From Desulfuromonadales bacterium (lineage in GTDB: Bacteria; Desulfobacterota; Desulfuromonadia; Desulfuromonadales; JACZKF01), in contig JACZKF010000283.1 in the NCBI GenBank assembly GCA_014860175.1, forward strand, positions 1-41,690: a DNA stretch of 41,690 bases. Reading direction: 5' to 3'. This document shows, piece after piece, positions 408 to 16,896 of this stretch. The notes under the pieces were generated by a model that saw only the letters and a list, made by a program, of their open reading frames with translations, was not told the DNA's origin and searched no databases. The position numbers and the translations under genes are program-made. The number at the start of each line of letters is the position of its first letter. Within the stretch, counting starts at the first letter, position 1.

Positions 408-437
408 GCGCCGGTTGGCTCACCGGCCGGCGCTCAG
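404..437. terminator. inverted repeat CTGAGCGCCGG / CCGGCGCTCAG between convergent genes; candidate bidirectional terminator
   Basis: Perfect 11-bp arms at 404-414 and 427-437 overlap both stop codons (TGA 405-407 on +, TGA 434-436 on -). There is no clear U-tract. Confidence 0.35.
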
Positions 438-1957
438 CGACGCCGGAAATCGAAAAAGCTGTTCCCTTTCTGCACCTGCAGGCGGCTGATGTCCTGGTCC
501 TTGCTCAGTTCCTTGAGGAGCAGCGTCAGCGGGTGTGCCCCCGTAGAGTAGGTTTTCGGCGGGCCGATCTTCTTGATCTCGCTGTCGCCGCGCATGATGT
601 GGTAGAGCATGAACTCCTCGTCCGTGGCGTTGGTCAAGCCGTAGCTCGCCCGCAGCTTGTCGACGTTTCCTTCTTCCGCCTCGATCTCCTGCTTGCGCTG
701 ATATCTGGCCGCCAGAGACTTGGTATTGGGGTGATTGAGGAACCGGTCCTTGACCTCGGGCTTCATCCATGGCACCCCGGCATCCTCCCAGCCCCAGACG
801 CCTAGCGCCGTTTCGATCATGCAGTCGAGCACTTCCTTGTACCGCTCGCCGGTCGCCACGTTGACCGCCGCCTGCGACACGATGAACTGGGAGGCGGGGG
901 TGATCATGATCGGGTGGCCGAGATCCTCGATGATCCGCACCACCTCCGCCAGGACCTCATCGAGCTTGTGGGCGATCCCCAGCTGCCCCAACTGGTTGCG
1001 CAGGTTCGAGATCACCCCCCCGGGGATCTGGTGCAGATAGACCCCGTGATCGTATTCCAGAGGGACGCCGATCGGCAGGTTTTCCAGCTTGGCGATGCGG
1101 GTCAGCCGCTCCTCGACGACTCTGAGGGCGTCCACGTCGGTGATATTGTGGGGAATCCCGAGTACTTTGGCGTTGTGCATGGCATTGAAGATCGACACAT
1201 GCGAGGACCCGGAGGCGAGGGGGGGGACGCAGGTGTGAATACGCTCGACTCCCAACTGCATCGCCTCCACCACCACCCGCCCCTGATTGGTGCTCATGCC
1301 GTGCGTGTGCAGTTCGACCGGCACCCCCCTCGCTTCCTTCCGAATCGCCGGCAGCAGCGTCCTGATCCGCTCCACCGTCAGCAGGCCGCCGGCGTCCTTG
1401 AGCATGAGCGCGTCCGGCCGGTAGGCCATGATCCGCCGGGTCAGGTCGGCGTAATGGGCATCGGTGGTCCGCGGCGAAGGGTAGTAGCAGATGGCCGGCA
1501 TGATTTCCATTGCCATCTCCCTGGCCATCGGGATCAGCCAGGGGAAGTACCGGTCCAGCTCGTTCCTGGTATTGGCCAGGGTAGTAAAGCGGCGGGCGCC
1601 CGAATTTCTTGCCGCCATACCGTAATACATCTTGACCATCGAACGGGTTTCGGACTCCCCGAGCAGATCAAGGCAGTTCAGGAACATGATGGTTTTCTTG
1701 GTCCGGGTGATTTTTTCCTTGAAGACCCGGGTGATCTCCCACGGATTCTCCCTGAGAAAGCGTGCCTGAAACTTGAAATTGACGGCATTCACCGGAACTT
1801 CGATCGAGTCATAGCCGGCCTGGTCCAGCTCTGCCGCCACGGCATCGTGCATGCCATGCGTCATGCGCATGGCCCAGAGACTCTGAGCCCCGTCGCGGAG
1901 CGTGACGTCTGAGAACATGATCTTTCTGCCGCTGCCGGTTCCGCGTTCCTCGACCAT
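434..1957 (-). CDS. carboxyltransferase subunit, 5S/OadA/PycB-type TIM barrel, no biotinyl domain (paralogue CT1)
   Basis: Motifs FSDVTLRDGAQS, LKDAGGLL and LHTHGMST match the metal/carbamyl-Lys signature of pyruvate-carboxylase-type CT domains. The start is set at ATG 1957 (MVEERGTGSGRKIMFSD...) because it has an AGGGGA SD and aligns with the N-termini of the three paralogues. The track ORF extends to 2014. Confidence 0.85.
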   Translation of the reverse strand: MVEERGTGSGRKIMFSDVTLRDGAQSLWAMRMTHGMHDAVAAELDQAGYDSIEVPVNAVNFKFQARFLRENPWEITRVFKEKITRTKKTIMFLNCLDLLGESETRSMVKMYYGMAARNSGARRFTTLANTRNELDRYFPWLIPMAREMAMEIMPAICYYPSPRTTDAHYADLTRRIMAYRPDALMLKDAGGLLTVERIRTLLPAIRKEARGVPVELHTHGMSTNQGRVVVEAMQLGVERIHTCVPPLASGSSHVSIFNAMHNAKVLGIPHNITDVDALRVVEERLTRIAKLENLPIGVPLEYDHGVYLHQIPGGVISNLRNQLGQLGIAHKLDEVLAEVVRIIEDLGHPIMITPASQFIVSQAAVNVATGERYKEVLDCMIETALGVWGWEDAGVPWMKPEVKDRFLNHPNTKSLAARYQRKQEIEAEEGNVDKLRASYGLTNATDEEFMLYHIMRGDSEIKKIGPPKTYSTGAHPLTLLLKELSKDQDISRLQVQKGNSFFDFRRR

Positions 1958-2002
1958 CTCAGATTCCCCTTTCGGTCGCCTGCAGGGAGAGCTCTCCCCG
2001 AG

Positions 2003-2048
2003 AAAAAAAAACATCCTCCCGAGCCCCCGGTGGGCCCTCGGGAGGATG
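2003..2048 (-). terminator. strong Rho-independent terminator between the DapB-like gene and CT1
   Basis: On the minus strand: CATCCTCCCGAG-N13-CTCGGGAGGATG (12-bp perfect stem, 2012-2023 / 2037-2048) followed by 9 U (A-run 2003-2011 on +). Confidence 0.75.
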
Positions 2049-2114
2049 CTCCGTCCTCTTCAGCCGGGCAGTGGCGCAACCCGGCACATCTTCATGATGC
2101 GGCCACGCTCCCTG

Positions 2115-3218
2115 CTACTTGGCAACCAGGTTACGATAGTCTTTGGTGTAGTGGGCAAAGGTCTTCGGGTAAACGATGCCGGGAGCGGCTTCGCAGACGA
2201 TCGGAATGGCCTGCACCATCGGCATCGCCGTCGCGTAGTAGCCCGGGGTGGTGTTGTCCCCCTCGCGGTAATGCTGATCTTTTTCCACCGACGCCATCAG
2301 GTCCATCTTCACGTTGACCGAAACGGGTCTCCCCTCGATCTGGATCCGGTAGTGATCCCCCTTGGTTTCGACCGGGCAGTACTCCTGGCCGAGAAAGAAG
2401 ATCTCATCCAGGTAGAAGAAGGGCTTGCCGTCGACGATACCGGTCCAGGTGTGCTGCCAGCAGGCGACCTCCCCCTTGCGGATCGTGACCCCGGAGGCCG
2501 GCAGGTAGAAATCCTCCCGGGCCGGGGTGAAGGTCGATTTCACCTCGATCCGCTCGACGTCATGCCCGAGGATATGGCAGGTTTGCGCGACCGTCGAATG
2601 GTAGTAGTTTTCTGACCCTTTCTCGATGCGGCCGATAATGCTGTGGGCTTTCTCCAGGGTCATGCCGAAGGTGCAGGCCCTCAGCATGCGAACCGCCTCG
2701 ACGTTTTTCAGGTCGAAGTACTCCTGGCAGCGGATGTAGTCGATCTCGTTCACCATGCCGGTCAGGGTCACGGCCAGCCGCTCGGCGAAAAAACCCGGGT
2801 TGATGCCGGTTCCATGCAGGCTCACCCCCCCCTTGCGGCAGGCGGTCTCCAGCAGGTCGACGAATCCCGCCCCGTGGATCTGCGGAAAATGATAGGAGGG
2901 GGCGGCGATGACGTTTTTCCCCGACTCCAGGATGCGGACCACTTCCTCATTGCGTGGGGTGTGATCCATGATGTTGGTGCCGCAATGGAGAACGCAGTCG
3001 GCCTCCATCTTGAGGATCTTCTCCTGATCGGTGGTGACCGGGACGCCGACCGGGCCGATTCCTGCCACCTCCCCGGCATCCTTGCCGTTCTTGCTCTCGC
3101 TGTAGGCGAGCACGCCGACCAGTTGGTATTCCGGGCGCTTGAGAACTTCCCGGATACAGGCGGCTCCTAAATAGCCGGGCGCCCAAACGATGACCTTGTA
3201 GGGAGTCTCTCTCCGCAT
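2115..3218 (-). CDS. NAD(P)-dependent oxidoreductase, DapB-N / 2,4-diaminopentanoate dehydrogenase (native amine dehydrogenase)-like family
   Basis: 367 aa. The N-terminal Rossmann-like segment KVIVWAPGYLGAACIREVLKRPEYQLVGVLAY and the overall length and pattern are typical of the dihydrodipicolinate-reductase-like family. GGAGGA SD lies upstream of ATG 3218. Confidence 0.6.
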   Translation of the reverse strand: MRRETPYKVIVWAPGYLGAACIREVLKRPEYQLVGVLAYSESKNGKDAGEVAGIGPVGVPVTTDQEKILKMEADCVLHCGTNIMDHTPRNEEVVRILESGKNVIAAPSYHFPQIHGAGFVDLLETACRKGGVSLHGTGINPGFFAERLAVTLTGMVNEIDYIRCQEYFDLKNVEAVRMLRACTFGMTLEKAHSIIGRIEKGSENYYHSTVAQTCHILGHDVERIEVKSTFTPAREDFYLPASGVTIRKGEVACWQHTWTGIVDGKPFFYLDEIFFLGQEYCPVETKGDHYRIQIEGRPVSVNVKMDLMASVEKDQHYREGDNTTPGYYATAMPMVQAIPIVCEAAPGIVYPKTFAHYTKDYRNLVAK

Positions 3219-3281
3219 GATTTCCTCCGTAACCTCTCTGTAGTAAATCGACCGGTACCGATCAGGCGCTCGGCCTTCGCA

Positions 3282-4055
3282 TCAGGCCAGCATGCCGCCA
3301 TCCACCCACAAGACCGATCCGGTGACATAGCGTGAGGCGTCGGCGGCAAGGAAGAGCGCCGCCCCCTTGAAATCGTCCTTCTCGCCAAGGCGCCCGAGCG
3401 GCACCGCGGCCTCCATGATCGCCCGCTGCGGCCCGACCATCAAGGTCTTGCTGATCTCGGTCGGGAAGATCCCGGGGGCGATGGCATTGACGCGGATGTT
3501 GTACTTGGCCCAGTTCCTCGACAGATGCCGGGTCAGGGCGATGATCGACCCCTTGGTCGAGGCATAGGCGGGGAAGGTCACCACTTCGGGATCGGTGGCC
3601 CGCACCCCGCCGATGGAGACGATGTTGATGATGTTCCCGCCGCCGGCGGCCATCATGTGGGGAACGACCTCGGTGGTGCAGAAGTAGTTGCCCCGGACGT
3701 TGGTGTTGTAGAGCTGATCCCATTTCTTGAGGGGGGTGTCCTGCAGCTCGCCCCCCCAGGAGATGCCGGCATTGTTGACCAGGATGTCAATCTTGCCGAA
3801 GCGCTTCATGGCGTGGGCCACCACCGCCTTGACTTCGTCCTGCTCGCTGATATCGCAGCGCAGGGCCTCGCATTCCCCCCCGATCGCCCGAATGCTCTCG
3901 GCCGCTTCCTCGCATTGGTCGATTTTGCGGGAGCAGAGCACCAGACTCGCCCCGGCCTCGGCAAACCCCTCGGCCATCATCAGGCCGAGCCCCCTCGAGC
4001 TGCCGGTGATGATGGCGACCTTCCCCTGCAAACTGAACAGCTGATTGACATGCAT
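3282..4055 (-). CDS. short-chain dehydrogenase/reductase (SDR)
   Basis: TGSSRGLG cofactor motif, NNAG, and catalytic YASTK. The start is moved to ATG 4055 (MHVNQLFSLQGKVAIITG) with a GGAGG SD. The upstream part of the track ORF lacks homology. Confidence 0.9.
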   Translation of the reverse strand: MHVNQLFSLQGKVAIITGSSRGLGLMMAEGFAEAGASLVLCSRKIDQCEEAAESIRAIGGECEALRCDISEQDEVKAVVAHAMKRFGKIDILVNNAGISWGGELQDTPLKKWDQLYNTNVRGNYFCTTEVVPHMMAAGGGNIINIVSIGGVRATDPEVVTFPAYASTKGSIIALTRHLSRNWAKYNIRVNAIAPGIFPTEISKTLMVGPQRAIMEAAVPLGRLGEKDDFKGAALFLAADASRYVTGSVLWVDGGMLA

Positions 4056-4220: not shown

Positions 4221-4997
4221 CTAGTACGGCACCACCCCTTCGGTGATCGACGCCGTGTTGTCGATGACGAACTCGGCGCCGCTGACGAATTTCGATTCAT
4301 CCGAAGCGAGATAGACGACCATATGGGCAACATCCTCCGGTTCGCCGAGCTTGGAGAAGAGCTTGGCCGCCGACTCCTCGGTGCCGCTGGTGACGGTCGC
4401 CGCCCCTTTGATGAATCCCTGCACCATCGGCGTGGCGATCCCCCCCGGGTGGACGGAGTTGCAGCGGATGTTGTAGCGGTTCTGGGCGCAGTGCACGGCG
4501 ATCGATTTGCTCATCGCCCGGATCGCCCCCTTGGAGGCGGCGTAGGCAAAAACAAGCGGATAGCCGCCGATACCGGCCAGGGAGGACATGTTGATGATGG
4601 AGCCGCCACCCGATTTGCGCATGGCGGCGATCCCGTGTTTGCAACCGAAGAAGGTGCCGTCGGTCCCCACCTCGTTGACGAAGCGCCAGTCCTCCAGCGA
4701 AGTATGTTCCACGTCGGCGACGACGACCACCCCGGCGTTGTTCACCAGCACGTCGAGCCGGCCGAAGCGGGCGAGGATCCGATTGATAATGGCGATCCAC
4801 TGCCCCTCGTCCCGGACGTCGTGTTTCATGAAAACCGCATTCTCCCCCAGGGAGTCGGCAACCTCCTTGCCCCTCGTCTCGTTGATGTCGGTCAGCACCA
4901 CCCTGGCTCCCTCGCGCACCAGCAGTCGGGCGCTCGCCTCGCCGAGACCGGATGCCGCACCTGTGACGATCGCGACCTTTCCTGCTACCCTGCCCAT
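4221..4997 (-). CDS. short-chain dehydrogenase/reductase (SDR), hydroxysteroid-dehydrogenase-like
   Basis: TGAASGLG, NNAG and YAASKGAIR motifs. AAAGGAGAAG SD lies upstream of ATG 4997. Confidence 0.9.
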   Translation of the reverse strand: MGRVAGKVAIVTGAASGLGEASARLLVREGARVVLTDINETRGKEVADSLGENAVFMKHDVRDEGQWIAIINRILARFGRLDVLVNNAGVVVVADVEHTSLEDWRFVNEVGTDGTFFGCKHGIAAMRKSGGGSIINMSSLAGIGGYPLVFAYAASKGAIRAMSKSIAVHCAQNRYNIRCNSVHPGGIATPMVQGFIKGAATVTSGTEESAAKLFSKLGEPEDVAHMVVYLASDESKFVSGAEFVIDNTASITEGVVPY

Positions 4998-5032
4998 TCA
5001 ACTTCTCCTTTCATTCCCAAATGCGCTTCCAT

Positions 5033-6634
5033 TTACCGGCAGACGTCATGCGCGGCGCGGTAGGCAAACACGCACCCCTGCCCGAGGGTCGCGCCCGCCC
5101 CCGGGTAATAGTTGCCGAAACAGGAGGCGGCCGCATTGCCGGCCGCATAGAGGCCGCCGACGGTGCGTCCGTCTTCGAGCCGGGTACGGCCGTAGTGGTC
5201 GGTGAGCGGCCCCATCTTGGTACCGAGAGTCCCCGGATAGAGGCGCACCGCCTGGAAAGGGGCCTCGACTTTTTCCAGATTGGGATGTCCCTTGCGGAAA
5301 TTGTCCCCCATATAGTTGTCGTACGGGCTTTCACCGCGGCGGAAATCCTCGTCCTTGCCGTGGGCCGCCATGGTATTCCAGCGCTCCAGGGTCGCTTTCA
5401 GGTTGTCGGCCGGAACGCCGATCTTCTCGGCCAGCTCCGCCACCGATTTCGACTTGTTCATGTAACTTTTCGCCGGCTGCAGATAAGAGACGGTCCCGCG
5501 AACGTAGTTCCTGACGTAGTAATCCCCCCAGATCAGCCAGACACGGTCGAGAGCTGGGTCTTTGCCCTGGGCCAGGAGGCCGCCGACGGTGTTGTAACAG
5601 GCCGATTCATTGGTAAAGCGGCGGCCTTCGGCGTCGACCATGATGCCGCCCGGCCAGCAGCGATCGTACAGGGCGCTGTGATAGGCCCACAGGTCGGGTC
5701 CGGGCTTCTCCTCCGTGCGGTCGTCGTACATCTTGAAGATCGGCGACCACCAGCAGTTCGGATTGCCGACCTTCAGGCCGGCCGCGAGGGCCAGGGCCAG
5801 GCCTCCCCCCCCGCTGTCGCATTCCTCGGGGGAGACCGACAGGACCGGCCGCTCGGCGGCAATCCGCGTCATCAGTTCCGGATGGTGGGAAAAGCCGCCG
5901 CAGGCCAGCATCACCGCCGGGGCGCTCACCCGCTGGCCGTTGATGATGGCGCCGGTTACCGTATTCCCCTGGACCTCCAGCTTCTCGGTGTTGCTGTTCA
6001 GAACGAGGTCGACCCCCGCCTCCAGGCACGCCTCGAGAAGGAAGGCCATGTACGCCTTGCCCATCGTCAGGTGCCCGGCGATCGCCCTCTTGGTCAGCAG
6101 CGTCTTGTTCCAGTGGCCGAAGCGGTGAACGCCCCAGGTCATCGCCTCATTCAAGGTGAAGGGGACGTAGTAGGCCGGTGTCTTGCGGATGAGCGAACGG
6201 TATTTTCGCGGGCCGGTGTAGACCCCGGGAAAGACCGACCTCCCCCTGGCCGCCCCGTCGATCTCCATGTAGTAGTCGGGATAGCTGATGGAGGCTTCCA
6301 TCCGGACGCCCCTGGCGAGATAGAAGTCGAGCAGCTTGGGCGCATCGGCAAGGAACCCGTCGAGCGAGGCCGGATCGATCTCCGGGTAGACGTTTTCGAG
6401 GTAGTGCCGTGCCCGCGCCGAATCGGCGGCCGGATTTTCCAGGAACCGGTGGCCGGGGAGCCAGACCCCGCCGCCGCTGTAGGCGGTGCAGCCGCCGACG
6501 CTCTCGGTCTTTTCCGCCACCTGGACCTGCAGGCGGGGGTTGAGATGTTTCACCGTCAGGGCGAAGGTGAGCCCCGCCGCCCCGGAACCGAGGACGAGAA
6601 CATCGCAGGTTTTTGCCAGCTTCTTGTTCAGCAT
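5033..6634 (-). CDS. FAD-dependent oxidoreductase, 3-oxosteroid 1-dehydrogenase (KstD)/fumarate-reductase-flavoprotein-like
   Basis: The N-terminal dinucleotide fold is CDVLVLGSGAAGLTFAL...AEKTESVGGCTAYSGGGVW, and the C-terminal GLYAAGNAA motif is present. The start is set at ATG 6634 (MLNKKLAKT) with a GGAGAAGG SD, 24 nt after the upstream stop. Confidence 0.85.
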   Translation of the reverse strand: MLNKKLAKTCDVLVLGSGAAGLTFALTVKHLNPRLQVQVAEKTESVGGCTAYSGGGVWLPGHRFLENPAADSARARHYLENVYPEIDPASLDGFLADAPKLLDFYLARGVRMEASISYPDYYMEIDGAARGRSVFPGVYTGPRKYRSLIRKTPAYYVPFTLNEAMTWGVHRFGHWNKTLLTKRAIAGHLTMGKAYMAFLLEACLEAGVDLVLNSNTEKLEVQGNTVTGAIINGQRVSAPAVMLACGGFSHHPELMTRIAAERPVLSVSPEECDSGGGGLALALAAGLKVGNPNCWWSPIFKMYDDRTEEKPGPDLWAYHSALYDRCWPGGIMVDAEGRRFTNESACYNTVGGLLAQGKDPALDRVWLIWGDYYVRNYVRGTVSYLQPAKSYMNKSKSVAELAEKIGVPADNLKATLERWNTMAAHGKDEDFRRGESPYDNYMGDNFRKGHPNLEKVEAPFQAVRLYPGTLGTKMGPLTDHYGRTRLEDGRTVGGLYAAGNAAASCFGNYYPGAGATLGQGCVFAYRAAHDVCR

Positions 6635-6657: not shown

Positions 6658-7440
6658 CTATTTGAAAACGACCGGCCGCTTCTCCGCGAACGCCTGGATG
6701 GCGTTGTTCGCATCCTCGGTCCCCAGGAGCAGGCACTGGGCGAGCTCCTCGTGCTTGAGAGCGGCGTCCAGGTCGAGTTCCAGGCCGGCGTAGATTGCCC
6801 ATTTGGCCATCCGGTAGGCCTGCCGCGGCCCCTTGGCCAGATTGGTGGCGTAGGCGATCGAAGCCGAGCGCATGTCGACGCTCGGGAAGACTTTGCTCAC
6901 CAGGCCGATCCGCAGCGCTTCCTGCGCATCAACCTTCTCGCCGGTCAGAATCAGTTCCATGGCGCGCCCAAGGCCGATGATTCTCGGCAGGAAATAGCTC
7001 CCCCCCATGTCGGTCATCAGGCCAGCCTTGATGAAGGATTCGGTGAAAAAAGCGTCCTCCGCCGCGAGGCGGATGTCGCAGGCCAGGGCGAGGTTGAAAC
7101 CGGCTCCGGAGGCGACGCCGTTCACCCCGGCAATCACCGGCTTCGGCATGTGATGGATCAGCGAGACGATCCGGTGCGATTCCCGGATGTATCCCTCGCG
7201 CACCAACGGGTCTCTGGTCTCGAAGCTCGGATGCCCCTTGAGATCCCCGCCGGCGCAGAATCCCTTGCCGTTGCCGGTCAGCAGCACGACTTTCACCGCC
7301 TCGTCGCCGGCCACCTCCTCAAGCGCCTGGTACAGTTCCAGAATCAGCGTCCGGTTGAGAGCGTTCATCCGCTCCGGCCGGTTCATGGTGATGATGCCTA
7401 CCGCCTCTGTTTTCTCCAGGATCAGTTCTTGAAAGGCCAC
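6658..7440 (-). CDS. enoyl-CoA hydratase/isomerase (crotonase) family protein
   Basis: ITMNRPERMNAL and the GVASGAGFNLALACD...FTESFIKAGL crotonase core. The first catalytic Glu position reads Asn. GTG 7440 (VAFQELILEK..., AAGGAA SD) is preferred. ATG 7500 is the alternative start and would swallow the palindrome at 7477-7488. Confidence 0.85.
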   Translation of the reverse strand: MAFQELILEKTEAVGIITMNRPERMNALNRTLILELYQALEEVAGDEAVKVVLLTGNGKGFCAGGDLKGHPSFETRDPLVREGYIRESHRIVSLIHHMPKPVIAGVNGVASGAGFNLALACDIRLAAEDAFFTESFIKAGLMTDMGGSYFLPRIIGLGRAMELILTGEKVDAQEALRIGLVSKVFPSVDMRSASIAYATNLAKGPRQAYRMAKWAIYAGLELDLDAALKHEELAQCLLLGTEDANNAIQAFAEKRPVVFK

Positions 7441-8915: not shown

Positions 8916-8943
8916 TCTCATTCTCCCTTTGCGCCTGGACGGA

Positions 8944-10473
8944 TCAAGCCGATCTGGTCTGTTTGAAATCGAAGAAGCTGTCCCCCTTCTGCAACTGCAG
9001 ACGGCTCACATCCCGGTGCTTGCTCAGCTCCTTGAGCAGCAGCGTCAGCGGTTCCTTGCCGGTGTAATAGGTCTTGGGCGGCTGGATCTTCTTGATTTCC
9101 GCATCGCCGCGCATGATGTGGTAGAGCATGAACTCCTCGTCCGAGGCGTTGGTCAGGCCGTAGCTGGCGCGCAGCTTGGAGACCGACCCCTCTTCCGCCT
9201 CGATCTCCTGCCGCCGTCGATAGCTTTCAGCGATATTCTTGGCGTTGGGGTGGCTGAGGAACCGGTCTTTCACCTCGGGTTTCATCCAGGGGACGCCGGC
9301 ATCTTCCCAGCCCCAGACGCCGAGGGCGGTCTCGATCATGCAATCGAGGACTTCTTTGTACCGCTGGCCGGTCGCCACGTTAACGGCGGCCTGGGAGACG
9401 ATGAACTGGGAACTCGGGGTGATCATGATCGGATGACCGAGATCTTCGATGATCCGCACCACCTCATGCAGCACTTCGTCCAGCTTGTGAGCGATCCCCA
9501 GCTGTCCCAGCTGACTCACCAGATTCGAGATCACCCCCCCCGGCACCTGGTGGGAATAGACCCCGTGGTCGTACTCCAGGGGGACGCCGATCGGCAGCCC
9601 TTCGAGCTTGGCGATCCGGGTCAGCCGTTCCTCGGCCACTTTGAGCGCCTCGACGTCGGTGATGTTGTGCTGCAGGCCGAGAACCTTGGCGTTGTGCATG
9701 GCGTTGAAGATCGACACGTGCGAGGAGCCGGAGGCGAGCGGCGGCACACAGGTGTGAATGCAATTGATGCCGAGCTTCATCGCTTCCACCACGACCCGCC
9801 CTTGGTTGGTGCTCATGCCGTGCGTATGCAGATCGATCGGCACCCCCTTCGCCTCCGCCTGAATCGCCGGCAGCAGCGTCTTCAGGCGCTCGACCGTCAA
9901 CAGGCCGCCGGCGTCTTTGAGGCACAGCGCCTCCGGCTTGTACTCCATGACCCGCCGGGTCAGGTTGGCATAATACTCATCGGTGGTGCGGGGTGAGGGA
10001 TAGTAGGCGATCCAGGGCTGGAACTCGAGCCCGATCTCCCGGGCCATCGGCACCACCCAGGGGAAGGCCCGGTCGAGCTCGTTGCGCGTGTTCGCCATGA
10101 AATAAAAGCGGGAGGCCCCGGAGGCCCGGGCCGTCAACTCGTGAAACAGCCGCACCACCGACCGGGGCTCAGCATTTTCGACGAGATTCAGTCGATCCAG
10201 GATGGCGATCTGTTTTGGGGTCTTGCGGATCTTATCCCGGAACAGATGGGCGATCTGCCACGGGTCTTCCTTGAAAAAGCGCACGACCATCTTGAAGTAA
10301 ATCGAAAAAACCGGCAGATCTATATGGTCATAGCCGGCCTTGTCCAGTTGTTCGACCACGGCATCGTGCTTGCCGTAGGTCATGTTCATGGCCCACAGAC
10401 TCTGCGCTCCGTCGCGCAGGGTCGTATCCGAGAACAGCACCCTGTTTTCGCTCCCCGTATTGCCTTTGGCCAT
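8944..10473 (-). CDS. carboxyltransferase subunit, 5S/OadA/PycB-type, no biotinyl domain (paralogue CT2)
   Basis: FSDTTLRDGAQS, LKDAGGLL and LHTHGMST motifs. AGGAGG SD lies upstream of ATG 10473. Confidence 0.88.
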   Translation of the reverse strand: MAKGNTGSENRVLFSDTTLRDGAQSLWAMNMTYGKHDAVVEQLDKAGYDHIDLPVFSIYFKMVVRFFKEDPWQIAHLFRDKIRKTPKQIAILDRLNLVENAEPRSVVRLFHELTARASGASRFYFMANTRNELDRAFPWVVPMAREIGLEFQPWIAYYPSPRTTDEYYANLTRRVMEYKPEALCLKDAGGLLTVERLKTLLPAIQAEAKGVPIDLHTHGMSTNQGRVVVEAMKLGINCIHTCVPPLASGSSHVSIFNAMHNAKVLGLQHNITDVEALKVAEERLTRIAKLEGLPIGVPLEYDHGVYSHQVPGGVISNLVSQLGQLGIAHKLDEVLHEVVRIIEDLGHPIMITPSSQFIVSQAAVNVATGQRYKEVLDCMIETALGVWGWEDAGVPWMKPEVKDRFLSHPNAKNIAESYRRRQEIEAEEGSVSKLRASYGLTNASDEEFMLYHIMRGDAEIKKIQPPKTYYTGKEPLTLLLKELSKHRDVSRLQLQKGDSFFDFKQTRSA

Positions 10474-10728: not shown

Positions 10729-12255
10729 TCATCTCCGGCCGAACTGGAAGACGCTATTCCCCTTTTTCATTTCCAGGCGCCGGAGGTCGTGATCTTTGCT
10801 CAATTCCTTGAGCAGCAGGAGCAGCGGTTCCTTTCCCGTGTAGTAGCTGCGGGGGGGCTGGACCTGCTTGATCTCACTGTCCCCCTTCATGATCACCTGC
10901 AGCATGAAATCTTCGTCCGAGGCGCCGGTCAGACCGTAGCTTTCGCGGATCTTGGCGAGCGATCCTTCTTCGGCCTCGATCTCCTGCTTCCGCTGGTACT
11001 TATCCCGCAGGTACTTGGCATTCGGGGCGCTGAGGAAGCGGTCCCGGACGTTCGGATCCATCCAGGGGACACCGGCATCTTCCCAGCCCCAGACGCCGAG
11101 GGCGGTCTCGATCATCGAGTCGAGGACCTCCTTGTAGCGCTCCCCGGTGGCGACGTTGACGGCGGCCTGCGAGACGATGAACTGGGAGGCCGGAGTGATC
11201 ATGATCGGGTTGCCGAGATCTTCGATGATCCGCACCACCTCTTCGAGAACCTCATCGAGCTTCTCGGCAATGCCGATCTGCCGCAACTGCTCTTTCAGGT
11301 TGGTGATCACCCCCCCGGGCACCTGATGCCGGTAGACGCTGTGATCGTATTCCAGCGGCGTGAAGTCGACCGGCAGGTTTTCGATCCGACCGATGATCCT
11401 GAGCCGCCTCTCGACCTCCCTGAGCGCCGCGACGTCGGTGATATTGTGGTCGACGCCGAGAATCCTGGCGTTGTGCATGGCATTGAAGATCGAGACGTGG
11501 GAAGAACCGAAGGCCAGGGGCGGAACGCAGGTGTGAATCCCGTCGATCCCCAGTTTCATCGCCTCTACCACCACCTGCCCCTGGTTGGTACTCATGCCGT
11601 GGGTATGCAGGTCGACCGGCACCCCCTTCGCCTCCTTCTGGATGGCCGGCAGCAGGGTCCGCAGCCGCTCCGCCGTCAGCAGGCCGCCGGCATCCTTCAG
11701 CCAGAGCGTATGCGGCTCATAGGCCATGAGCTTGCGGGTCAGGTCGGCGTAGTAGTCGTCGCTGAGCCGGGGCGACGGGTAGTAACAGATGCACGGATTG
11801 AAGTCGAGGCCGAGGCTTTTGCCGAAAGGGACCAGCCAGGGGCAATGGCGGTCGAGCTCGTTGCGGGTATTGACCATGTAGAAGAAGCGTTCGGCGCCGG
11901 TGGCTCTGAAGGTCAGCTGGTAAAACAGCTTGATGATCGAGCGCGGCTGGCCGTAATCGAGCAGGTCGAGGCATTCCATCAGGACCTGGTTTTTCCGGGT
12001 CCGGGTTATTTTTCTCCCGAGCAGATGCGCAATGTCCCAGGGGTTTTCTTTCATAAACCGGACCTGGTGTTTGGCCGTCATCGCATTCACCGGTAGTTCG
12101 ATATAGCTGTAGCCGGCCTGGTCGAGTTCGCCGGCGATCGCATCGATGGTGCCGTGGCGCATTTCCATCGCCCAGTTGCTCTGGGCGCCGTCGCGCAGGG
12201 AGGTGTCGTAGAACTGCACCGACTTTTTCGCTCTGGTCTGGTTCTCTCTTTCCAT
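10729..12255 (-). CDS. carboxyltransferase subunit, 5S/OadA/PycB-type, no biotinyl domain (paralogue CT3)
   Basis: FYDTSLRDGAQS, LKDAGGLL and LHTHGMST motifs. AGAGGGA SD lies upstream of ATG 12255. Confidence 0.88.
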   Translation of the reverse strand: MERENQTRAKKSVQFYDTSLRDGAQSNWAMEMRHGTIDAIAGELDQAGYSYIELPVNAMTAKHQVRFMKENPWDIAHLLGRKITRTRKNQVLMECLDLLDYGQPRSIIKLFYQLTFRATGAERFFYMVNTRNELDRHCPWLVPFGKSLGLDFNPCICYYPSPRLSDDYYADLTRKLMAYEPHTLWLKDAGGLLTAERLRTLLPAIQKEAKGVPVDLHTHGMSTNQGQVVVEAMKLGIDGIHTCVPPLAFGSSHVSIFNAMHNARILGVDHNITDVAALREVERRLRIIGRIENLPVDFTPLEYDHSVYRHQVPGGVITNLKEQLRQIGIAEKLDEVLEEVVRIIEDLGNPIMITPASQFIVSQAAVNVATGERYKEVLDSMIETALGVWGWEDAGVPWMDPNVRDRFLSAPNAKYLRDKYQRKQEIEAEEGSLAKIRESYGLTGASDEDFMLQVIMKGDSEIKQVQPPRSYYTGKEPLLLLLKELSKDHDLRRLEMKKGNSVFQFGRR

Positions 12256-12403: not shown

Positions 12404-12444
12404 CCGTGATCTCACTCAGCCTCTCCCGAGGTCTGCATAACGAG

Positions 12445-13812
12445 CTACTTCATGGCTGCCAGAAATTTGGGCATCACGGTGTTTTCGATCCATTTGACAT
12501 GAATCTCCCCGGTGGCGAACTCAGGCTGGGCGATGAGGAACTGGAGAAACGGAATGTTGGTCTCCACACCGCTGATCTGAAAGCTGGCCAGGGCGCTTTT
12601 CAGGTTTTGCAGGGCGCTGTCGCGGGTCTCACCGGTGGCAATGACCTTGGCCATCAGAGAATCGTAGTAGGGGCTGATGGTGTAGCCCTGGTAGCAGTGC
12701 GTGTCGACCCGGATGTTGTCCCCGTACGGGACGACGAAGCGGGAGATCTGGCCCGGGGTCGGCATGAAATCGTTCCTGCTGTCTTCGGCGGTGATGCGGC
12801 ACTCGATGGCGTGCCCCTTAAACTTCACCTCGGACTGATTCAGCGCCAGAGGATGGCCGAAGGCGATCCGGATCTGTTCCTTGACCAGATCGACCCCGGT
12901 CACTTCTTCGGTGACCGGATGCTCCACCTGGATCCGCGTGTTCACTTCCATGAAGTAGAACTGCTGGCGGTCCATGTCGACCAGGAACTCCACCGTGGCG
13001 GCATTGTTGTAATTGATCCCTTTGGCCAGAGCCACGGCCGCCGCCGAAATCCTGTCGGTCAGCTCCTCAGGGAGACCGATCGGCCGGGCCTCTTCGATCA
13101 CCTTCTGATACCGGCGCTGGGAAGAGCAGTCCCGCTGCCCGAGATGAATGACCCGGCCGAAATTATCGCCGAGAATCTGGACTTCGACATGTCGCGCATT
13201 CTGCACATAGCGCTCCATGAACAGGGTCGGATCGCCGAAGGCTTTCTGGGCTTCGTTGGACGCCATGTCGAAGGCGTTTTTTAACTCCTTCAACTCCCGG
13301 ACGATGCGCATCCCGCGCCCGCCACCGCCGGCCGAGGCCTTAAAGAGGATCGGAAATCCGAGCTCCTGGGCGATCGCTTCCGCCACCTTGTAATCGCTCA
13401 GGCCGTCACTCCCCTGGTTGATGGGAACGCCGCACTCGGTGGCGATCTTCCGGGCCCGGATCTTGTCGCCCAGCTGCCGCATGGTCTCGGAGCGAGGGCC
13501 GATAAAAATGATGCCGTTCTTTTCGCAGGCGAGGGGCAGCTCGGGATTCTCGGCAAGAAACCCGTACCCCGGATGAATGGCATCGCAGCCGGTCCCCTGG
13601 GCCGTGGCGATGAGCATCGGGATGTTCAGGTAACTCTGGCCGGCCGGGGCCGGGCCGATACAGACCACCTTGTCCGCCAGCCGGGCCGGCAGACTCTCCT
13701 TGTCGGCTTCCGAAACCACCAGCACGGTCTCGACATTGCTCTGTTCGCAGGCCCGGATGATCCGAACGGCGATCTCGCCGCGGTTGGCGATCAAAATTCG
13801 CTTTTTTCTCAT
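12445..13812 (-). CDS. biotin carboxylase (ATP-grasp), AccC-like
   Basis: 455 aa, MRKKRILIANRGEIAVRIIRA..., ATP-grasp core and C-terminal biotin-carboxylase domain, collinear with AccC and the PC BC domain. Confidence 0.93.
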   Translation of the reverse strand: MRKKRILIANRGEIAVRIIRACEQSNVETVLVVSEADKESLPARLADKVVCIGPAPAGQSYLNIPMLIATAQGTGCDAIHPGYGFLAENPELPLACEKNGIIFIGPRSETMRQLGDKIRARKIATECGVPINQGSDGLSDYKVAEAIAQELGFPILFKASAGGGGRGMRIVRELKELKNAFDMASNEAQKAFGDPTLFMERYVQNARHVEVQILGDNFGRVIHLGQRDCSSQRRYQKVIEEARPIGLPEELTDRISAAAVALAKGINYNNAATVEFLVDMDRQQFYFMEVNTRIQVEHPVTEEVTGVDLVKEQIRIAFGHPLALNQSEVKFKGHAIECRITAEDSRNDFMPTPGQISRFVVPYGDNIRVDTHCYQGYTISPYYDSLMAKVIATGETRDSALQNLKSALASFQISGVETNIPFLQFLIAQPEFATGEIHVKWIENTVMPKFLAAMK

Positions 13813-13898
13813 CTTTTGCGTCGCTCCTTCATCACGGCATGGTCACCGCGCATCTCGGGGAAGGGCTGAGGCCAGGGGCGCAGCCGACCCGCCTTGCC

Positions 13899-14423
13899 TC
13901 ACTCGGGGCGAATCAGGAACATGACGGTGCCGGCCTGCACCAGGTCGCTGCTCTCCACGCAGATCTTCTCCACCCGCCCGCGCACATCGGCCGTCACCTG
14001 GCGGAAGCACTTCATCACTTCCAGCAGGCAGCCGACGGTGTCTTCCTGGACCAAGTCGCCGACTTCGACGAACGACGGCTCCTCCGGGCTCGGCCGGCGG
14101 TAGAAGACGCTGGTGACGTTCGCCTTGATCGGGATGAGCCCCTCTTCGGCCACTGCCGAAGTCTTGTCCGCCGCCGGGGCGGCGACCGCTTTCGGCTCGG
14201 CAGCCCTCGGCGCTGCCAAGGCCGCTGCGCTCGGGGCGGCAGGGGCGGCCGGGCTGGTCTGGCAGGCGACCCCGGAGAAGTTCACCAGGGTGCGGCTATT
14301 GTCACCGACTTCCCCCTTGAACAGGGACATCTTCAGCTCGCCGGTATCGATATGCAGTTCAGCGTCTTTGCACTCCTTGACGATTTTCAACGCCTCGATG
14401 ACATCATCCATGCTGAAACCCAT
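13899..14423 (-). CDS. biotin carboxyl carrier protein, AccB-type (BCCP2)
   Basis: 174 aa, about 92% identical to BCCP1, with the same EVMK motif and Ala/Pro linker. AGGAAGG SD lies upstream of ATG 14423. Confidence 0.9.
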   Translation of the reverse strand: MGFSMDDVIEALKIVKECKDAELHIDTGELKMSLFKGEVGDNSRTLVNFSGVACQTSPAAPAAPSAAALAAPRAAEPKAVAAPAADKTSAVAEEGLIPIKANVTSVFYRRPSPEEPSFVEVGDLVQEDTVGCLLEVMKCFRQVTADVRGRVEKICVESSDLVQAGTVMFLIRPE

Positions 14424-14455
14424 AATCTGCCTTCCTTTCGTCGCGGTTTGACCGG

Positions 14456-15979
14456 TTATTTTTGCCGGAAATCAAAAAAGCTGCTGCCTTTTTGCATCTG
14501 CAGGCGGCTGATGTCCCGATCTTTACTCAATTCGTGGAGCAGCAGCATCAGGGGTTCCTTGCCCGTGTAGTAGCTTTTCGGCGGTTTGATCTTCTTGATC
14601 TCGGAGTCGCCGCGCATGATATGGTAGAGCATGAAATCCTCATCCGAGGCGTTGGTCATGCCGTAGCTGGAGCGCAGTTTGTTCACGTTCCCCTCTTCGG
14701 CTTCCATCTCCTGCCTCCGTTTGTATTTTTCGCCCAGCGGCTTGGCGTTGGGATGGCTGAGGAAGCGGTCCTTGATCTCGGGTTTCATCCAGGGGACGCC
14801 CGCATCTTCCCACCCCCAGACGCCGAGGGCGGTTTCGATCATGCAGTCGAGAACCTCCTTGTAGCGCTCCCCGGTGGCGACGTTGACCGCCGCCTGCGAG
14901 ACGATGAACTGGGAGGCCGGGGTGATCATGATCGGATGTCCGAGGTCTTCGATGATGCGTACCACCTCGTCCAGAACCTCGTCGAGCTTGTGCCCGATCC
15001 CCAGCTGGGCCAACTGGCTCCTCAGGTTCGAAATGACCCCCCCGGGAATCTGGTGCGAGTAAATGCCGTGATCGTATTCCAGGGGGGCGCCGAGCGGGAG
15101 GTTCTCCAGCTTGGCGATCCGGTTCAGACGCTCTTCGGCCAGCTTGAGCGCCTCGATGTTGGTGATGTTGTGGCTCATGCGCAGCACCTTGGCGTTGTGC
15201 ATAGCGTTGAAGATCGACACGTGGGAGGAGCCGGAGGCGAGCGGCGGGACACAGGTGTGGACGCGATCGATGCCGAGTTTCATCGCTTCCACCACGACCA
15301 GCCCCTGAAACGTACTCATGCCATGGGTGTGGAGTTCGATCGGGACGCCCTTGGCTTCCTTCTGGATGGCCGGCAGGAGGGTCCGGATGCGATCCAGGGT
15401 CAGCAGCCCCCCGGCATCCTTGAGCATGATGGCATCCGGCTTGTACGCCATGATCTTTTTGGTCAGGTTGGCGTAGTAGGCGTCCGTCGTCCGGGGCGAG
15501 GGGTAGTAGCAGACCGCCGGCATGATTTCCATTCCGAGGTTTCGGGCGATCGGGATCAGCCAAGGGAAGTAGCGATCGAGCTCGTTCCTCGTATTGGCCA
15601 GGGTAAAAAACCGGCCCAGTCCGGCGCTTCTTGCCGCCAGTTCATAGTAGAGGCGAACGACCGAACGCGCTTCGGACTCACCGAGCAGGTCCAGGCAATC
15701 CATGATCACCGCACTCTTCTTGGTCTTGGTGATCTTTTCCTTGAAGACACGGGCGATCTGCCACGGATCTTCCTGCAGGAAGCGGACCTGGAACTTGAAG
15801 TTGACGGCGTTCATCGGCAGTTCGATCGAATCGTATCCGGCATCATCCAGTTCGGCGGCAACAGCATCAATCATGCCGTGGGTCATTTTCATGGCCCACA
15901 TGCTCTGAGCGCCATCGCGGAGCGTCACGTCCGTGAAGGTGATCTTGTTTTCAGTCGTTGCCTTGCTTTCCTTACCCAT
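14456..15979 (-). CDS. carboxyltransferase subunit, 5S/OadA/PycB-type, no biotinyl domain (paralogue CT4)
   Basis: FTDVTLRDGAQS, LKDAGGLL and LHTHGMST motifs. GAAGGAG SD lies upstream of ATG 15979. Confidence 0.88.
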   Translation of the reverse strand: MGKESKATTENKITFTDVTLRDGAQSMWAMKMTHGMIDAVAAELDDAGYDSIELPMNAVNFKFQVRFLQEDPWQIARVFKEKITKTKKSAVIMDCLDLLGESEARSVVRLYYELAARSAGLGRFFTLANTRNELDRYFPWLIPIARNLGMEIMPAVCYYPSPRTTDAYYANLTKKIMAYKPDAIMLKDAGGLLTLDRIRTLLPAIQKEAKGVPIELHTHGMSTFQGLVVVEAMKLGIDRVHTCVPPLASGSSHVSIFNAMHNAKVLRMSHNITNIEALKLAEERLNRIAKLENLPLGAPLEYDHGIYSHQIPGGVISNLRSQLAQLGIGHKLDEVLDEVVRIIEDLGHPIMITPASQFIVSQAAVNVATGERYKEVLDCMIETALGVWGWEDAGVPWMKPEIKDRFLSHPNAKPLGEKYKRRQEMEAEEGNVNKLRSSYGMTNASDEDFMLYHIMRGDSEIKKIKPPKSYYTGKEPLMLLLHELSKDRDISRLQMQKGSSFFDFRQK

Positions 15980-16128
15980 ATGTACTCCTTCTCAAGAAGC
16001 TGCAGAAGCTGAAGCGGGCGCAAGTCCTTCTCTCTGAACCGACCGGAGATGCCGTTTTCGATTGCCGGGGCGGGTTGCCTCCCCTTCCCCGCACCTCTGC
16101 CGGAAAGGGGAGGGTTCAACTGATTGGC

Positions 16129-16896
16129 CTAAAAAGCCGTCCAGCCGCCATCGACGGCGATCGTCTCGCCGGTCATGTAACTGGCGGCCTCGGAAGCCAT
16201 GAACACGCAGACGTCGCCGATTTCCCGCGGCTCGCCACCACGTTTCATCGGGATTTTGAGCAGGTTCTGCTCCAGGATCTTCGGATTCGATTCGATGTCC
16301 CGTTTGGCCATCTCGGTGACGATATACCCGGGGGCGATGCAGTTGACGCGCACACCTTTGCGCGCCCACTCGACGGCGAGGGCCCGGGTCAACTGCACAA
16401 CTCCGCCCTTGCTGGCGATGTAGGCGGCGATATTGGGGAAGCCTCTCAGGCCGAAGACGGAGGCGTTGTTGATCATGCAGCCGCTCTTGCGGGCGACCAT
16501 TTCCCGGCCGACGATCTTGCTGCAGAGAAAGTAGCCCTTCAGGTTGGTATCGAGCACGTGGTCCCACTCTTCCTCGGTGACATCGATCGTCGGCTTGACC
16601 AGGTTGATGCCGGCGTTGTTCACCAGAATGTCGATCTGACCAAACTCGGCCAGGGTCTTCTGCACCATCGCCTCGATGTCACTCGACTTCAGCACGTCGG
16701 TTTTGACCTTGATGCACTTCACCCCTTTGGCGGCGACCTCGGCGACCACCTTTTCCAGGCTCGCCTCGTTGCGGGCGGCCAGAACCAGATTCGCCCCCGC
16801 CTCGGCCATGCTGATGGCGATCGCTTCCCCCAGACCCTGACTTGCGCCCGTGATGATCGCTGTTTTCCCTTGCAAACTGAACCGTTCCAATGCCAT
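16129..16896 (-). CDS. short-chain dehydrogenase/reductase (SDR); first gene of the carboxylase operon
   Basis: TGASQGLG, NNAG and YIASKGGV motifs. The start is moved to ATG 16896 (MALERFSLQGK) with a GGGAGG SD. Confidence 0.9.
   Translation of the reverse strand: MALERFSLQGKTAIITGASQGLGEAIAISMAEAGANLVLAARNEASLEKVVAEVAAKGVKCIKVKTDVLKSSDIEAMVQKTLAEFGQIDILVNNAGINLVKPTIDVTEEEWDHVLDTNLKGYFLCSKIVGREMVARKSGCMINNASVFGLRGFPNIAAYIASKGGVVQLTRALAVEWARKGVRVNCIAPGYIVTEMAKRDIESNPKILEQNLLKIPMKRGGEPREIGDVCVFMASEAASYMTGETIAVDGGWTAF

Follow-up and report, generated by a model that had tools for sequence, protein, structure and literature searches.

The closest described relatives of the system considered here are biotin-dependent carboxylases that act on ketones. 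HpeCBA of Rhodococcus rhodochrous GD02 was purified as a biotin-containing enzyme composed of a 17.4-kDa biotin carboxyl carrier protein (BCCP) together with subunits of 57.4 and 49.3 kDa, and it carboxylates 4-phospho-acetophenone and 4-phospho-acetovanillone with one ATP hydrolysed per turnover (PMC9618137). AcvCDE of Sphingobium sp. SYK-6 consists of an AccB-like BCCP, an AccC-like biotin carboxylase (BC) and a carboxyltransferase (CT) sharing 26% identity with Methanothermobacter PycB, and XccABC of Aromatoleum aromaticum EbN1 is a homologue of AcvCDE with the same architecture, for which ketone carboxylation is only predicted (bioRxiv 10.1101/2022.04.28.489975). The reaction of both HpeCBA and AcvCDE is the ATP- and bicarbonate-dependent alpha-carboxylation of an aryl methyl ketone to a beta-keto acid (PMC9618137; bioRxiv 10.1101/2022.04.28.489975). 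This report deals with a carboxylase gene cluster on the minus strand, at positions 434-16,896, of a 41,690-bp contig from a metagenome-assembled genome (MAG) of the Desulfuromonadales; the whole contig (NCBI locus tags IH614_08540-08600) will be referred to as the window.

The three described systems share with the window a separate AccB-like BCCP of ~17 kDa, an AccC-like BC and a PycB-like CT of ~500 aa that lacks a BCCP domain, and in loci related to Hpe and Acv genes for thiolases or CoA activation are close by. An earlier interpretation of this DNA, called here the sequence-only reading, had stated that the architecture matches no characterised carboxylase, and this statement does not hold against HpeCBA, AcvCDE and XccABC; the idea, raised in the same reading, that an ATP-dependent carboxylase acts on a non-classical enolisable ketone agrees with our best explanation. 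This explanation, which we hold with moderate confidence, is that the cluster encodes a biotin-dependent ketone carboxylase of the HpeCBA/AcvCDE/XccABC type, in which one BC/BCCP hub serves CTs of differing ketone specificity. The window differs from the described systems in having an additional YkgJ-type protein, several CT paralogues and duplicated BCCPs. Moreover, the hosts of its clade are uncultured and belong mostly to anaerobic lineages, and its neighbouring genes suggest aliphatic or alicyclic ketones instead of the aryl ketones used by Hpe and Acv.

Other carboxylases resemble the window in part. PycA/PycB (5ks8), OadA (2nx9) and transcarboxylase 5S (1rqb) have in common with the window CTs the TIM barrel with its PYC_OADA domain, the metal site, the Arg/Gln pair and the catalytic Thr; unlike PycB and OadA, the window CTs lack a fused biotinyl domain, have altered LRGxNxxGY and KDMAG motifs and stay under all curated cut-offs, and unlike the OadA and 5S systems, the cluster has catabolic surroundings, not central-metabolic ones, and a pump or 12S partner was not found. 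The actinobacterial acyl-CoA carboxylases, in which the alpha subunit AccA3 (BC-BCCP) is common to several CTs (AccD4, AccD5 and AccD6), offer a parallel in design, namely one biotin-carboxylating hub with several CTs of differing substrate specificity, as proposed for the window; however, their CTs have the crotonase fold and act on acyl-CoA, and their BCCP is fused to BC, whereas the window has TIM-barrel CTs of the pyruvate carboxylase (PC) type and free BCCPs. AccABCD is unlike the window in needing a crotonase-fold AccA/AccD partner. Finally, the acetone and acetophenone carboxylases, ATP-dependent and biotin-independent enzymes of oxygen-free ketone activation (PMC5214803, PMC7888143), share the proposed reaction of ketone, bicarbonate and ATP to a beta-keto acid, but they are unrelated proteins of the hydantoinase/oxoprolinase type, without biotin and with another ATP stoichiometry.

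The carboxyltransferases and their biotin partners

On the minus strand, the genes follow the order SDR_a-CT4-BCCP2-BC-CT3-CT2-BCCP1-YkgJ-ECH_a-KstD-like-SDR_b-SDR_c-DapB-like-terminator-CT1, where SDR denotes a short-chain dehydrogenase and ECH a crotonase-fold protein. Both order and strand are exactly those given by the sequence-only reading, and Pfam confirmed one BC, two BCCPs and four CTs. CT4 (14456-15979, 507 aa) occupies the canonical cassette position SDR-CT-BCCP-BC, CT3 (10729-12255, 508 aa) is the most divergent of the four with ~67% identity to the others, CT2 (8944-10473) has 509 aa, and CT1 (434-1957, 507 aa) stands alone past the terminator. All are deposited at NCBI as "hypothetical protein". 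Each one matches the Pfam domains HMGL-like and PYC_OADA over the gathering scores (PYC_OADA E = 2.5e-22 to 5e-21), a Biotin_lipoyl domain is absent from all of them according to Pfam, and the motifs LRDGAQS, LKDAGGLL and LHTHGMST are present in 4/4, as had been read earlier from the translations. Their pairwise identities span 67-79%, with CT1 and CT4 at 79%; these values, together with the 92.5% identity of the two BCCPs, indicate that the pattern is not due to chance.

Regarding the assignment of the CTs to named families, the NCBIfam models for PycB, OadA, 5S and PC, whose cut-offs span 402-1182 bits, all gave scores far below these limits. The best match was NF006761 (209-232 bits, cut-off 402), and the oadA and 5S models gave 189-221 bits (cut-off 756.5) and 123-165 bits (cut-off 827), respectively. 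In the sequence search of the PDB, CT4 matched PycB 5ks8 first (E = 1.6e-43), then OadA 2nx9 and 5S 1rqb. Its AlphaFold2 (AF2) model, with a predicted local distance difference test (pLDDT) score of 76.5, has TM-scores of ~0.7 to 5ks8 (PycB/PC), 1rqb (5S) and 2nx9 (OadA) by Foldseek, so that the assignment of the fold is secure.

The catalytic set, composed of R21, D22 and Q25 (RDGAQS), K187 (KD), H217, H219 and T353 (ITPASQ), is kept in 4/4 CTs and is invariant in 38 family members. We take the Asp, the carbamylated Lys and the His-x-His pair to form the metal site, the Arg and Gln of RDxxQS to be the conserved pair, and the Thr of (V/I)TPxSQ to be the catalytic residue, equivalent to T882 of Rhizobium etli PC and T908 of Staphylococcus aureus PC; entries for T908A and M186I variants among the PDB fold matches agree with these roles. 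The pocket differs from that of the pyruvate enzymes at two sites. The LRGxNxxGY motif of PycB, OadA and PC holds the Arg that binds the carboxylate of pyruvate (R621 in R. etli PC numbering) along with Y628, and the +7 spacing fits this numbering; in the window CTs this motif aligns to MDCLDLLGE, both by phmmer against 5ks8 and by MAFFT, hence the Arg and the Tyr are replaced in these sequence alignments. The Arg is retained in the Hpe-like and Burkholderia-type CTs. The second site is the Met of KDMAG, which corresponds to Met186 of 5S, the position of the M186I variant in PDB 1u5j, and which is Ala in the window family (KDAGG). From the loss of the carboxylate-binding Arg and the exchange of Met for Ala, we infer that enolisation proceeds as in the pyruvate enzymes, but on a substrate without an alpha-carboxylate and perhaps of larger size, i.e., a ketone and not a 2-oxo acid.

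To place the CTs, a neighbour-joining tree of 96 sequences was built with 100 bootstraps. The four window CTs group tightly with the relatives that share 65% identity or more (99/100), and this clade joins the outgroups P0121, P0123, P0124 and P0126 with 100/100. PycB, OadA and PC, characterised by KDMAG, RDxHQS and a fused BCCP, form a separate clade with a support of its own of 61/100, and the nesting of the window CTs within the PycB/OadA clades was not seen. Along with the NCBIfam scores, the tree bears out the earlier view that the CTs are a distinct subfamily, although not the marker proposed for it, RDGAQS in place of RDxHQS: the Ala position of this motif varies (A/Q/N/P/S/T) throughout the stand-alone CTs, and RDGAQS was rejected as a clade marker. 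A division of the CTs into three stable subclades (A, B and C), paired as alpha and beta subunits, was likewise rejected, with bootstraps of 0-41%. For the comparison with the described ketone carboxylases, homologues encoded on plasmids and recognised by gene context stood in for HpeB, AcvE and XccA; these CTs, Hpe-like from Rhodococcus and Acv-like from Sphingobium, share 29-34% identity with the window CTs and fall outside their clade, so that by this comparison the window CTs do not look like Hpe/Acv orthologues.

A scan of 1.84 billion representative proteins revealed a large radiation of stand-alone CTs between the CT4 query and the PycB/OadA-type proteins, and for 10 outgroup representatives the names of cluster members are automatic annotations only. 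Close relatives belong to Desulfobacterales, Desulfosarcina, Syntrophales, Steroidobacteraceae, other Gammaproteobacteria and Ignavibacteria, and they are automatically annotated as "oxaloacetate decarboxylase alpha subunit". The scan of genome contigs gave MAGs only, with no cultured host for the window clade, and an exact look-up of CT4 in the contig index had no match. Literature on the biotin-dependent carboxylation of ketones by sulfate reducers and on steroids, monoterpenes, BKACE and YkgJ yielded no paper on this clade; the protein named "pyruvate carboxylase subunit B" in the work on ketone use by Desulfosarcina cetonica is an unrelated, constitutive protein of 63.7 kDa.

The sole BC of the window (12445-13812) carries all three biotin-carboxylase Pfam domains (Biotin_carb_N, the ATP-grasp domain CPSase_L_D2 and Biotin_carb_C); it reaches 634 bits on the subfamily model NF006367 (cut-off 597) and 601 on the accC equivalog TIGR00514 (cut-off 626.5). 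The free AccB-type carriers BCCP2 (13899-14423) and BCCP1 (8391-8921) both match Biotin_lipoyl, each with the biotinylation motif EVMKC, and score 77-80 bits on TIGR00531 (BCCP1 80; cut-off 115). They are 92.5% identical as proteins and 95.4% as DNA, versus 73-79% DNA identity among the CT genes, a difference that points to gene conversion or concerted evolution of the carriers, or to a constraint set by the one BC. The BCCP paralogues group by genome, also in other MAGs, and the CT paralogues are old and intermixed across genomes. Among the scanned open reading frames (ORFs) of the window, Pfam found no Carboxyl_trans (AccA/AccD) gene, and there was no OadB/GcdB-type pump, OadG or 12S-type partner, in line with the absence of AccA/AccD-type CTs and of a pump recorded earlier.

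The sequence-only reading had also held that free AccB-type BCCPs normally partner with AccA/AccD, which is too narrow, as both plasmids and metagenomes commonly carry CTs without BCCP domain beside accB/accC-like genes. With CT4 as query, tblastn against plasmids retrieved such CTs of ~490 aa beside BCCP and BC genes on Rhodococcus, Sphingobium and Burkholderia plasmids. The Rhodococcus loci also contain a PPDK-like kinase, a thiolase and a phosphatase, with an SRPBCC gene in the Hpe-like ones, and the Sphingobium loci contain a HAD hydrolase and a BKACE gene. On the plasmid of Burkholderia sp. THE68 (L007, 1067-13533), the order CT-accB-accC is formed by a CT from another stand-alone clade and is flanked by genes for acetoacetate decarboxylase, an acetate symporter, carbonic anhydrase and biotin synthesis; it is a further uncharacterised three-component member, possibly with acetone or acetoacetate as substrate.

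Cassettes, paralogues and the YkgJ-type protein

In other MAGs, the canonical cassette reads ECH-SDR-CT-BCCP-BC-YkgJ-SDR and contains one CT. Within the compared loci, which bear L numbers, single-CT cassettes occur in L015, L024, L027, L031 and L033; the fullest of them, L033, comprises ECH_b (72%), SDR_a (71%), CT (68%), BCCP, BC (77%), YkgJ (56%) and SDR_b (64%), the percentages being identities to the window proteins. Relative to this type, the window has CT3 and a CT2-BCCP1 module as insertions between BC and YkgJ, a further insertion of ECH_a and the KstD-like gene behind YkgJ, and CT1 appended past the terminator. A 4.6-Mb Desulfobacterales MAG has eight CT paralogues, BC and BCCP being seen only at the core locus (CT-BCCP-BC-CT-BCCP-YkgJ); its six solitary CTs adjoin genes for KstD-like proteins, SDRs, thiolase, two phosphotransacetylase-type (PTA) proteins plus a kinase, and aldehyde:ferredoxin oxidoreductase or molybdoenzymes.

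The best reading of these arrangements is that of a hub and spokes, in which the four CT paralogues would be supplied by one BC and two nearly identical BCCPs, much as mycobacterial AccA3 serves several AccD subunits. The distribution of invariant columns among the four CTs is informative in this regard: they make up 30-34% of residues 51-150, in the barrel loops that include the R621-equivalent loop, as compared with 74% at 201-250 and 301-350 and 92% at 351-400, the regions containing the metal ligands, the catalytic Thr and the funnel. With conserved catalytic and BCCP-facing parts and divergent barrel loops on the substrate side, each CT probably has its own ketone or pathway intermediate as substrate.

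The same genes could also be understood as encoding the subunits of a single hetero-oligomeric carboxyltransferase, i.e., one enzyme with one substrate. CTs are adjacent in L016 (CT-BCCP-BC-CT-BCCP-YkgJ), in L017 (CT-CT-BCCP-CT) and at CT3-CT2 of the window, and PC-type CT domains do dimerise, as in solved PC structures with CT-CT dimers such as 7zz6. We consider this explanation unlikely because of the single-CT cassettes listed above and of the many CTs that are solitary and distant from the core in the same genome; in addition, each of the four CTs has the full catalytic set, terminator-like sites part CT1 and CT2 from the core, and the CT subclades are not consistently paired.

Several observations on the surroundings of CTs in other genomes deserve mention. 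In a Syntrophales MAG (L003 and L023; ~10001-16251 of L003), a DDE_3 transposase gene lies between two CT-BCCP pairs with further insertion sequence (IS) genes close by, as if the module had recently been duplicated in association with IS elements. In two MAGs, two PTA_PTB genes and an acetate/butyrate-kinase-like gene occur a few genes or fewer downstream of a CT, in one case a solitary CT (L001, 11609-14633) and in the other the second CT-BCCP pair (L003, 17697-20709); these sets may represent an acyl-phosphate route linking the carboxylated acid to CoA. Finally, a solitary CT of a Desulfobacterales MAG (L002 and L010) is near genes for an aldehyde:ferredoxin oxidoreductase, a molybdopterin oxidoreductase with a Fer4_11 subunit, an MlaDEF-like transporter and a zinc alcohol dehydrogenase, a set that recalls how hydrocarbons or sterols are hydroxylated anaerobically to alcohols and ketones.

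The YkgJ-type cysteine-cluster protein (7588-8301; Pfam CxxCxxCC) is a recurrent companion of the carboxylase. It contains nine conserved Cys residues (28, 59, 63, 66, 67, 148, 156, 166 and 178) and belongs to a narrow subfamily, with 22 clusters at 48% identity or more and the next one at 36%. Its gene adjoins the carboxylase genes in 8/9 BC-containing loci of the clade, mostly directly after BC (the window, L015, L016, L024, L027, L031, L033 and L034; the exception is L018). L031 is informative because its CT is only 40% identical to CT4 and is closest to the outgroup P0126. The gene is absent from the Hpe/Acv-like and Burkholderia loci examined. The AF2 model is of good quality (pLDDT 86, predicted TM-score 0.86) and retrieved no fold match in the PDB, the best E-value being 5.7, and the sequence search of the PDB was also empty. 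The protein is a candidate fourth subunit or accessory component of the carboxylase and may bind a metal or an Fe-S cluster.

Neighbouring genes, transcription units and other features

The genes that accompany the carboxylase within the cluster encode mostly redox enzymes. SDR_a (16129-16896, ATG start at 16896; Pfam) has homologues of 71-77% identity next to the core in L027 and L033. Past the YkgJ gene, ECH_a (6658-7440; Pfam ECH_1) is followed by the KstD-like protein (5033-6634, probable start ATG 6634; Pfam FAD_binding_2), an FAD-dependent ketone (enone-forming) dehydrogenase whose best PDB matches are the 3-ketosteroid dehydrogenases 4c3x and 7p18 (E ~1e-48). SDR_b (4221-4997; Pfam) resembles secondary-alcohol dehydrogenases, with (R)-specific alcohol dehydrogenase and 4-hydroxycyclohexanecarboxylate dehydrogenase as best NCBIfam models, both under their cut-offs, and its homologue in L033 is directly 3' of the YkgJ gene. 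Next are SDR_c (3282-4055, probable start ATG 4055 with a GGAGG ribosome-binding site; Pfam adh_short) and the DapB-like protein (2115-3218; Pfam DapB_N and DAP_DH_C), an NAD(P) oxidoreductase resembling 2,4-diaminopentanoate dehydrogenase, of the native amine dehydrogenase family. The latter scores 107 bits on the NCBIfam model ornith_Ord, under its cut-off, its top PDB matches are 6g1h and 6g1m, two further matches (6iau and 7qzl) carry amine dehydrogenase deposition names, and a homologue of 65% identity adjoins the core in L015.

The functional cluster extends upstream, on the same strand, through an SRPBCC/Polyketide_cyc2 protein (17439-17879; Pfam E = 2.9e-16), a binder of hydrophobic ligands, the cassette-linked crotonase-fold protein ECH_b (17956-18729; Pfam ECH_1) and a TetR-family regulator (19181-19822; Pfam TetR_N), which is the probable repressor of the cluster; TetR genes likewise flank the cassettes of L027 and L031. 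A divergent unit on the plus strand, identified by Pfam, is probably also part of the cluster and comprises a thiolase (20328-21536), an atypical crotonase (21569-22429) and a CurA/PGR-like enone reductase ORF (22198-23493); the thiolase exceeds its NCBIfam cut-off with 679 bits, and the curcumin-reductase model gave 299 bits, under its cut-off. Regarding the crotonase-fold proteins, ECH_a has N at the first hydratase Glu site (GAGFNL) and keeps the second (FTESF), and ECH_b lacks both glutamates, so that neither is probably a simple hydratase; to judge from these residues, ECH_b is a candidate hydrolase, decarboxylase or isomerase. Homologues of ECH_b in the cassettes of L027, L033 and L034 are 71-77% identical to it across MAG lineages, one of which is gammaproteobacterial, and this hints at horizontal transfer of the cassette.

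The sequence-only reading had termed the whole array a super-operon. The gene array stands, but terminator-like and promoter-like sites imply that there are probably at least three transcription units. A strong intrinsic terminator, read from the sequence and missed by the consensus scan, lies at ~2002-2048 on the minus strand, with a 12-bp GC-rich stem and a run of ~10 T. The start of CT1 was re-set to ATG 1957, which has a ribosome-binding site and gives 507 aa, because the alternative ATG at 2014, which was rejected, is inside the T-run of this terminator. The 255-nt gap between CT3 and CT2 holds, also on the minus strand and as consensus matches only, a terminator-like hairpin (10712-10689; 10 bp, 8 GC, then TCTTTT) and a sigma-70-like promoter (10609-10581), a pair that would divide the cluster at the border of the inserted CT2-BCCP1 module.

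The map of the window shows densely packed genes. A cobalamin riboswitch (RF00174, 112.9 bits) at 38140-38326 on the plus strand is directly upstream of genes for a TonB-dependent receptor (38438-40423) and a periplasmic binding protein (40476-41411); a link of these B12-uptake genes to the carboxylase was considered and rejected, as the riboswitch explains the unit. At 27079-31844 on the minus strand, a Co/Ni transporter of the energy-coupling factor type is encoded ~10 kb away from the cluster by genes for a CbiM-DUF4198 fusion, CbiQ and an ABC ATPase. PC-type CTs need a divalent metal, and 5S uses Co2+; a link of this transporter to the carboxylase was considered and downgraded. The stretch 32000-36500 has a GC content of 0.55-0.57 as compared to ~0.62, includes ORFs without Pfam matches, a weak AbiEii-like match (E = 0.004) and a DUF3300 protein (34902-36494), and may be acquired DNA.

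Substrate, alternatives and implications

The sequence-only reading had placed the carboxylase among genes for ketone/enone and CoA-ester enzymes, and the gene context likewise points to ketone or enone chemistry, away from central pyruvate metabolism. KstD-like genes occur in the window, L008, L009 and L011; other neighbours linked to ketones or enones are SDR genes of the secondary-alcohol or hydroxycyclohexanecarboxylate dehydrogenase kind, a gene of the 3beta-HSD family (L031), OYE enoate reductase genes (L027 and L033) and the CurA/PGR-like reductase of the window. The SRPBCC protein, together with TonB or DUF1302/DUF1329 uptake proteins encoded in related loci, suggests that the substrate is hydrophobic. 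Genes that fit a beta-keto acid as product are those for BKACE in L034 and L006, for CoA ligases in L015, L027 and L033, for thiolases (one of them in the window), for two PTA proteins plus a kinase beside solitary CTs, and for the cassette-linked ECH_b as a possible hydrolase or decarboxylase. BKACE enzymes convert a beta-keto acid and acetyl-CoA to an acyl-CoA and acetoacetate.

In the mechanism we propose, BC would use ATP and bicarbonate to carboxylate the biotin of a free AccB-type BCCP, and the carboxy-BCCP would dock onto a stand-alone, metal-dependent TIM-barrel CT of the PC type, which would enolise the bound carbonyl compound and move CO2 to its alpha-carbon to yield a beta-keto acid. 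The substrate would most likely be a neutral, hydrophobic aliphatic or alicyclic ketone, in preference to pyruvate, 2-oxoglutarate or a phospho-aryl ketone. The SDRs, the KstD-like dehydrogenase and the enone reductase would convert alcohols or enones to the saturated ketone; the beta-keto acid would then become a CoA ester to be processed by the crotonase-fold proteins and the thiolase, possibly through thiolytic or hydrolytic retro-Claisen cleavage of a C-C bond or ring. The data show directly which domains are present, that the catalytic residues are kept, to which clade the CTs belong and that the gene linkage is conserved; the ketone substrate, the way in which the CTs divide the work, the part played by YkgJ and the later chemistry are inferred.

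An alternative is that the cluster encodes a carboxylase of the Hpe/Acv/Xcc type for a phosphorylated hydroxyaryl methyl ketone, with the kinase and phosphatase encoded elsewhere. Hpe, Acv and Xcc are the only characterised enzymes with this three-component architecture, which is identical in the window, and the SRPBCC gene recurs in the Hpe-like loci of Rhodococcus. Kinase and phosphatase genes are present in the Rhodococcus and Sphingobium loci, whereas no PEP-utilising/phenylphosphate-synthase-type kinase and no HAD or tyrosine phosphatase occurs in the window or in the other loci of the clade examined; the clade separation and low identity of the CTs, the Arg kept by the Hpe-like CTs and absent from the window clade, the lack of YkgJ in Hpe/Acv-like loci, and neighbours of KstD-like, enone-reductase and SDR type instead of aromatic-acid catabolism all argue in the same direction and make this alternative improbable.

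Less probable still is a system working by decarboxylation or transcarboxylation, in which the CTs would move CO2 from beta-keto or oxo-dicarboxylic acids onto biotin, with the CO2 then released or passed to another CT and with BC in a minor or anaplerotic role. OadA and 5S, which run in this direction, are among the closest solved relatives, and several CTs with two BCCPs would in principle permit transfer from CT to CT, the shuttling of CO2 that the sequence-only reading had entertained. Such shuttling finds no support and fits poorly with a complete and typical BC, which is kept in every core locus, and with canonical cassettes that have a single CT; moreover, no pump of the OadB/GcdB type or 12S-type partner was found in the window, and HpeCBA consumes one ATP per carboxylation (PMC9618137). 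That the CTs are ordinary duplicated paralogues of pyruvate carboxylase, 2-oxoglutarate carboxylase or oxaloacetate decarboxylase acting on 2-oxo acids is very improbable, for their Pfam domains, their best named matches (PycB, OadA and 5S) and the automatic annotation of their relatives as oxaloacetate decarboxylase are set against equivalog scores far under the cut-offs, a position outside the PycB/OadA clade, no fused BCCP domain, the replaced Arg, Tyr and Met of the two motifs, and a location within a TetR-controlled catabolic island.

Several points weigh against the reading we prefer, a ketone carboxylase with one hub and several CTs. The alignment that shows the missing Arg falls in a variable loop and is made at the sequence level, and several active-site loops of the CT4 model have low confidence. 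The trees are of the neighbour-joining kind, with weakly supported CT subclades, the comparison with Hpe and Acv relies on plasmid homologues as stand-ins, and every relative in the window clade stems from a MAG or metagenome. The four CTs could instead be partners in hetero-oligomers that make up one enzyme. The neighbouring genes (SDR, crotonase and thiolase) are generic: NCBIfam and PDB searches with the SDRs, crotonases, KstD-like protein and thiolase gave generic or sub-cut-off matches and no pathway name, and a CoA ligase, CoA transferase or BKACE gene for the activation of a beta-keto acid was not found in the window.

A more far-reaching version of this reading, which we put forward tentatively, is that CT-BCCP-BC-YkgJ may be a distinct four-component class of carboxylases for unactivated, non-phosphorylated aliphatic or alicyclic ketones of the terpenoid, steroid or cyclohexanone type, with YkgJ as an essential subunit and the CTs as interchangeable cartridges. 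If this is true, the beta-keto acids would provide an oxygen-free handle for C-C cleavage, including ring opening, and thus an alternative to Baeyer-Villiger oxygenation and to carboxylases of the acetone/acetophenone type. To our knowledge, oxygen-free attack on ketones is known in few cases, namely the acetone and acetophenone carboxylases, the thiamine pyrophosphate-dependent route of Desulfococcus, and Hpe/Acv.

What appears to be new, as judged from gene content and alignments, is an uncharacterised and uncultured clade that has the Hpe/Acv-type architecture and would combine the absence of a phosphorylation module with an altered substrate pocket, a Cys-rich fourth protein and an expansion of CTs around one hub. 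Such CTs could serve as biocatalysts for the formation of C-C bonds. The clade is widespread yet wholly uncultured, reaching from Desulfobacterales, Desulfosarcina, Syntrophales and Desulfuromonadales to Steroidobacteraceae and other Gammaproteobacteria, and hundreds of such proteins are annotated as "oxaloacetate decarboxylase alpha subunit" or "hypothetical protein", a labelling that distorts the metabolic reconstructions of anaerobic degraders of hydrocarbons and lipids. With this clade, the biotin-dependent carboxylation of ketones would reach new substrates, probably aliphatic or alicyclic ones; the clade would also add to a well-studied enzyme class a conserved Cys-rich component without a fold match in the PDB, and would be the PC-type case of a design with one hub and many transferases, so far known from the actinobacterial acyl-CoA carboxylases.

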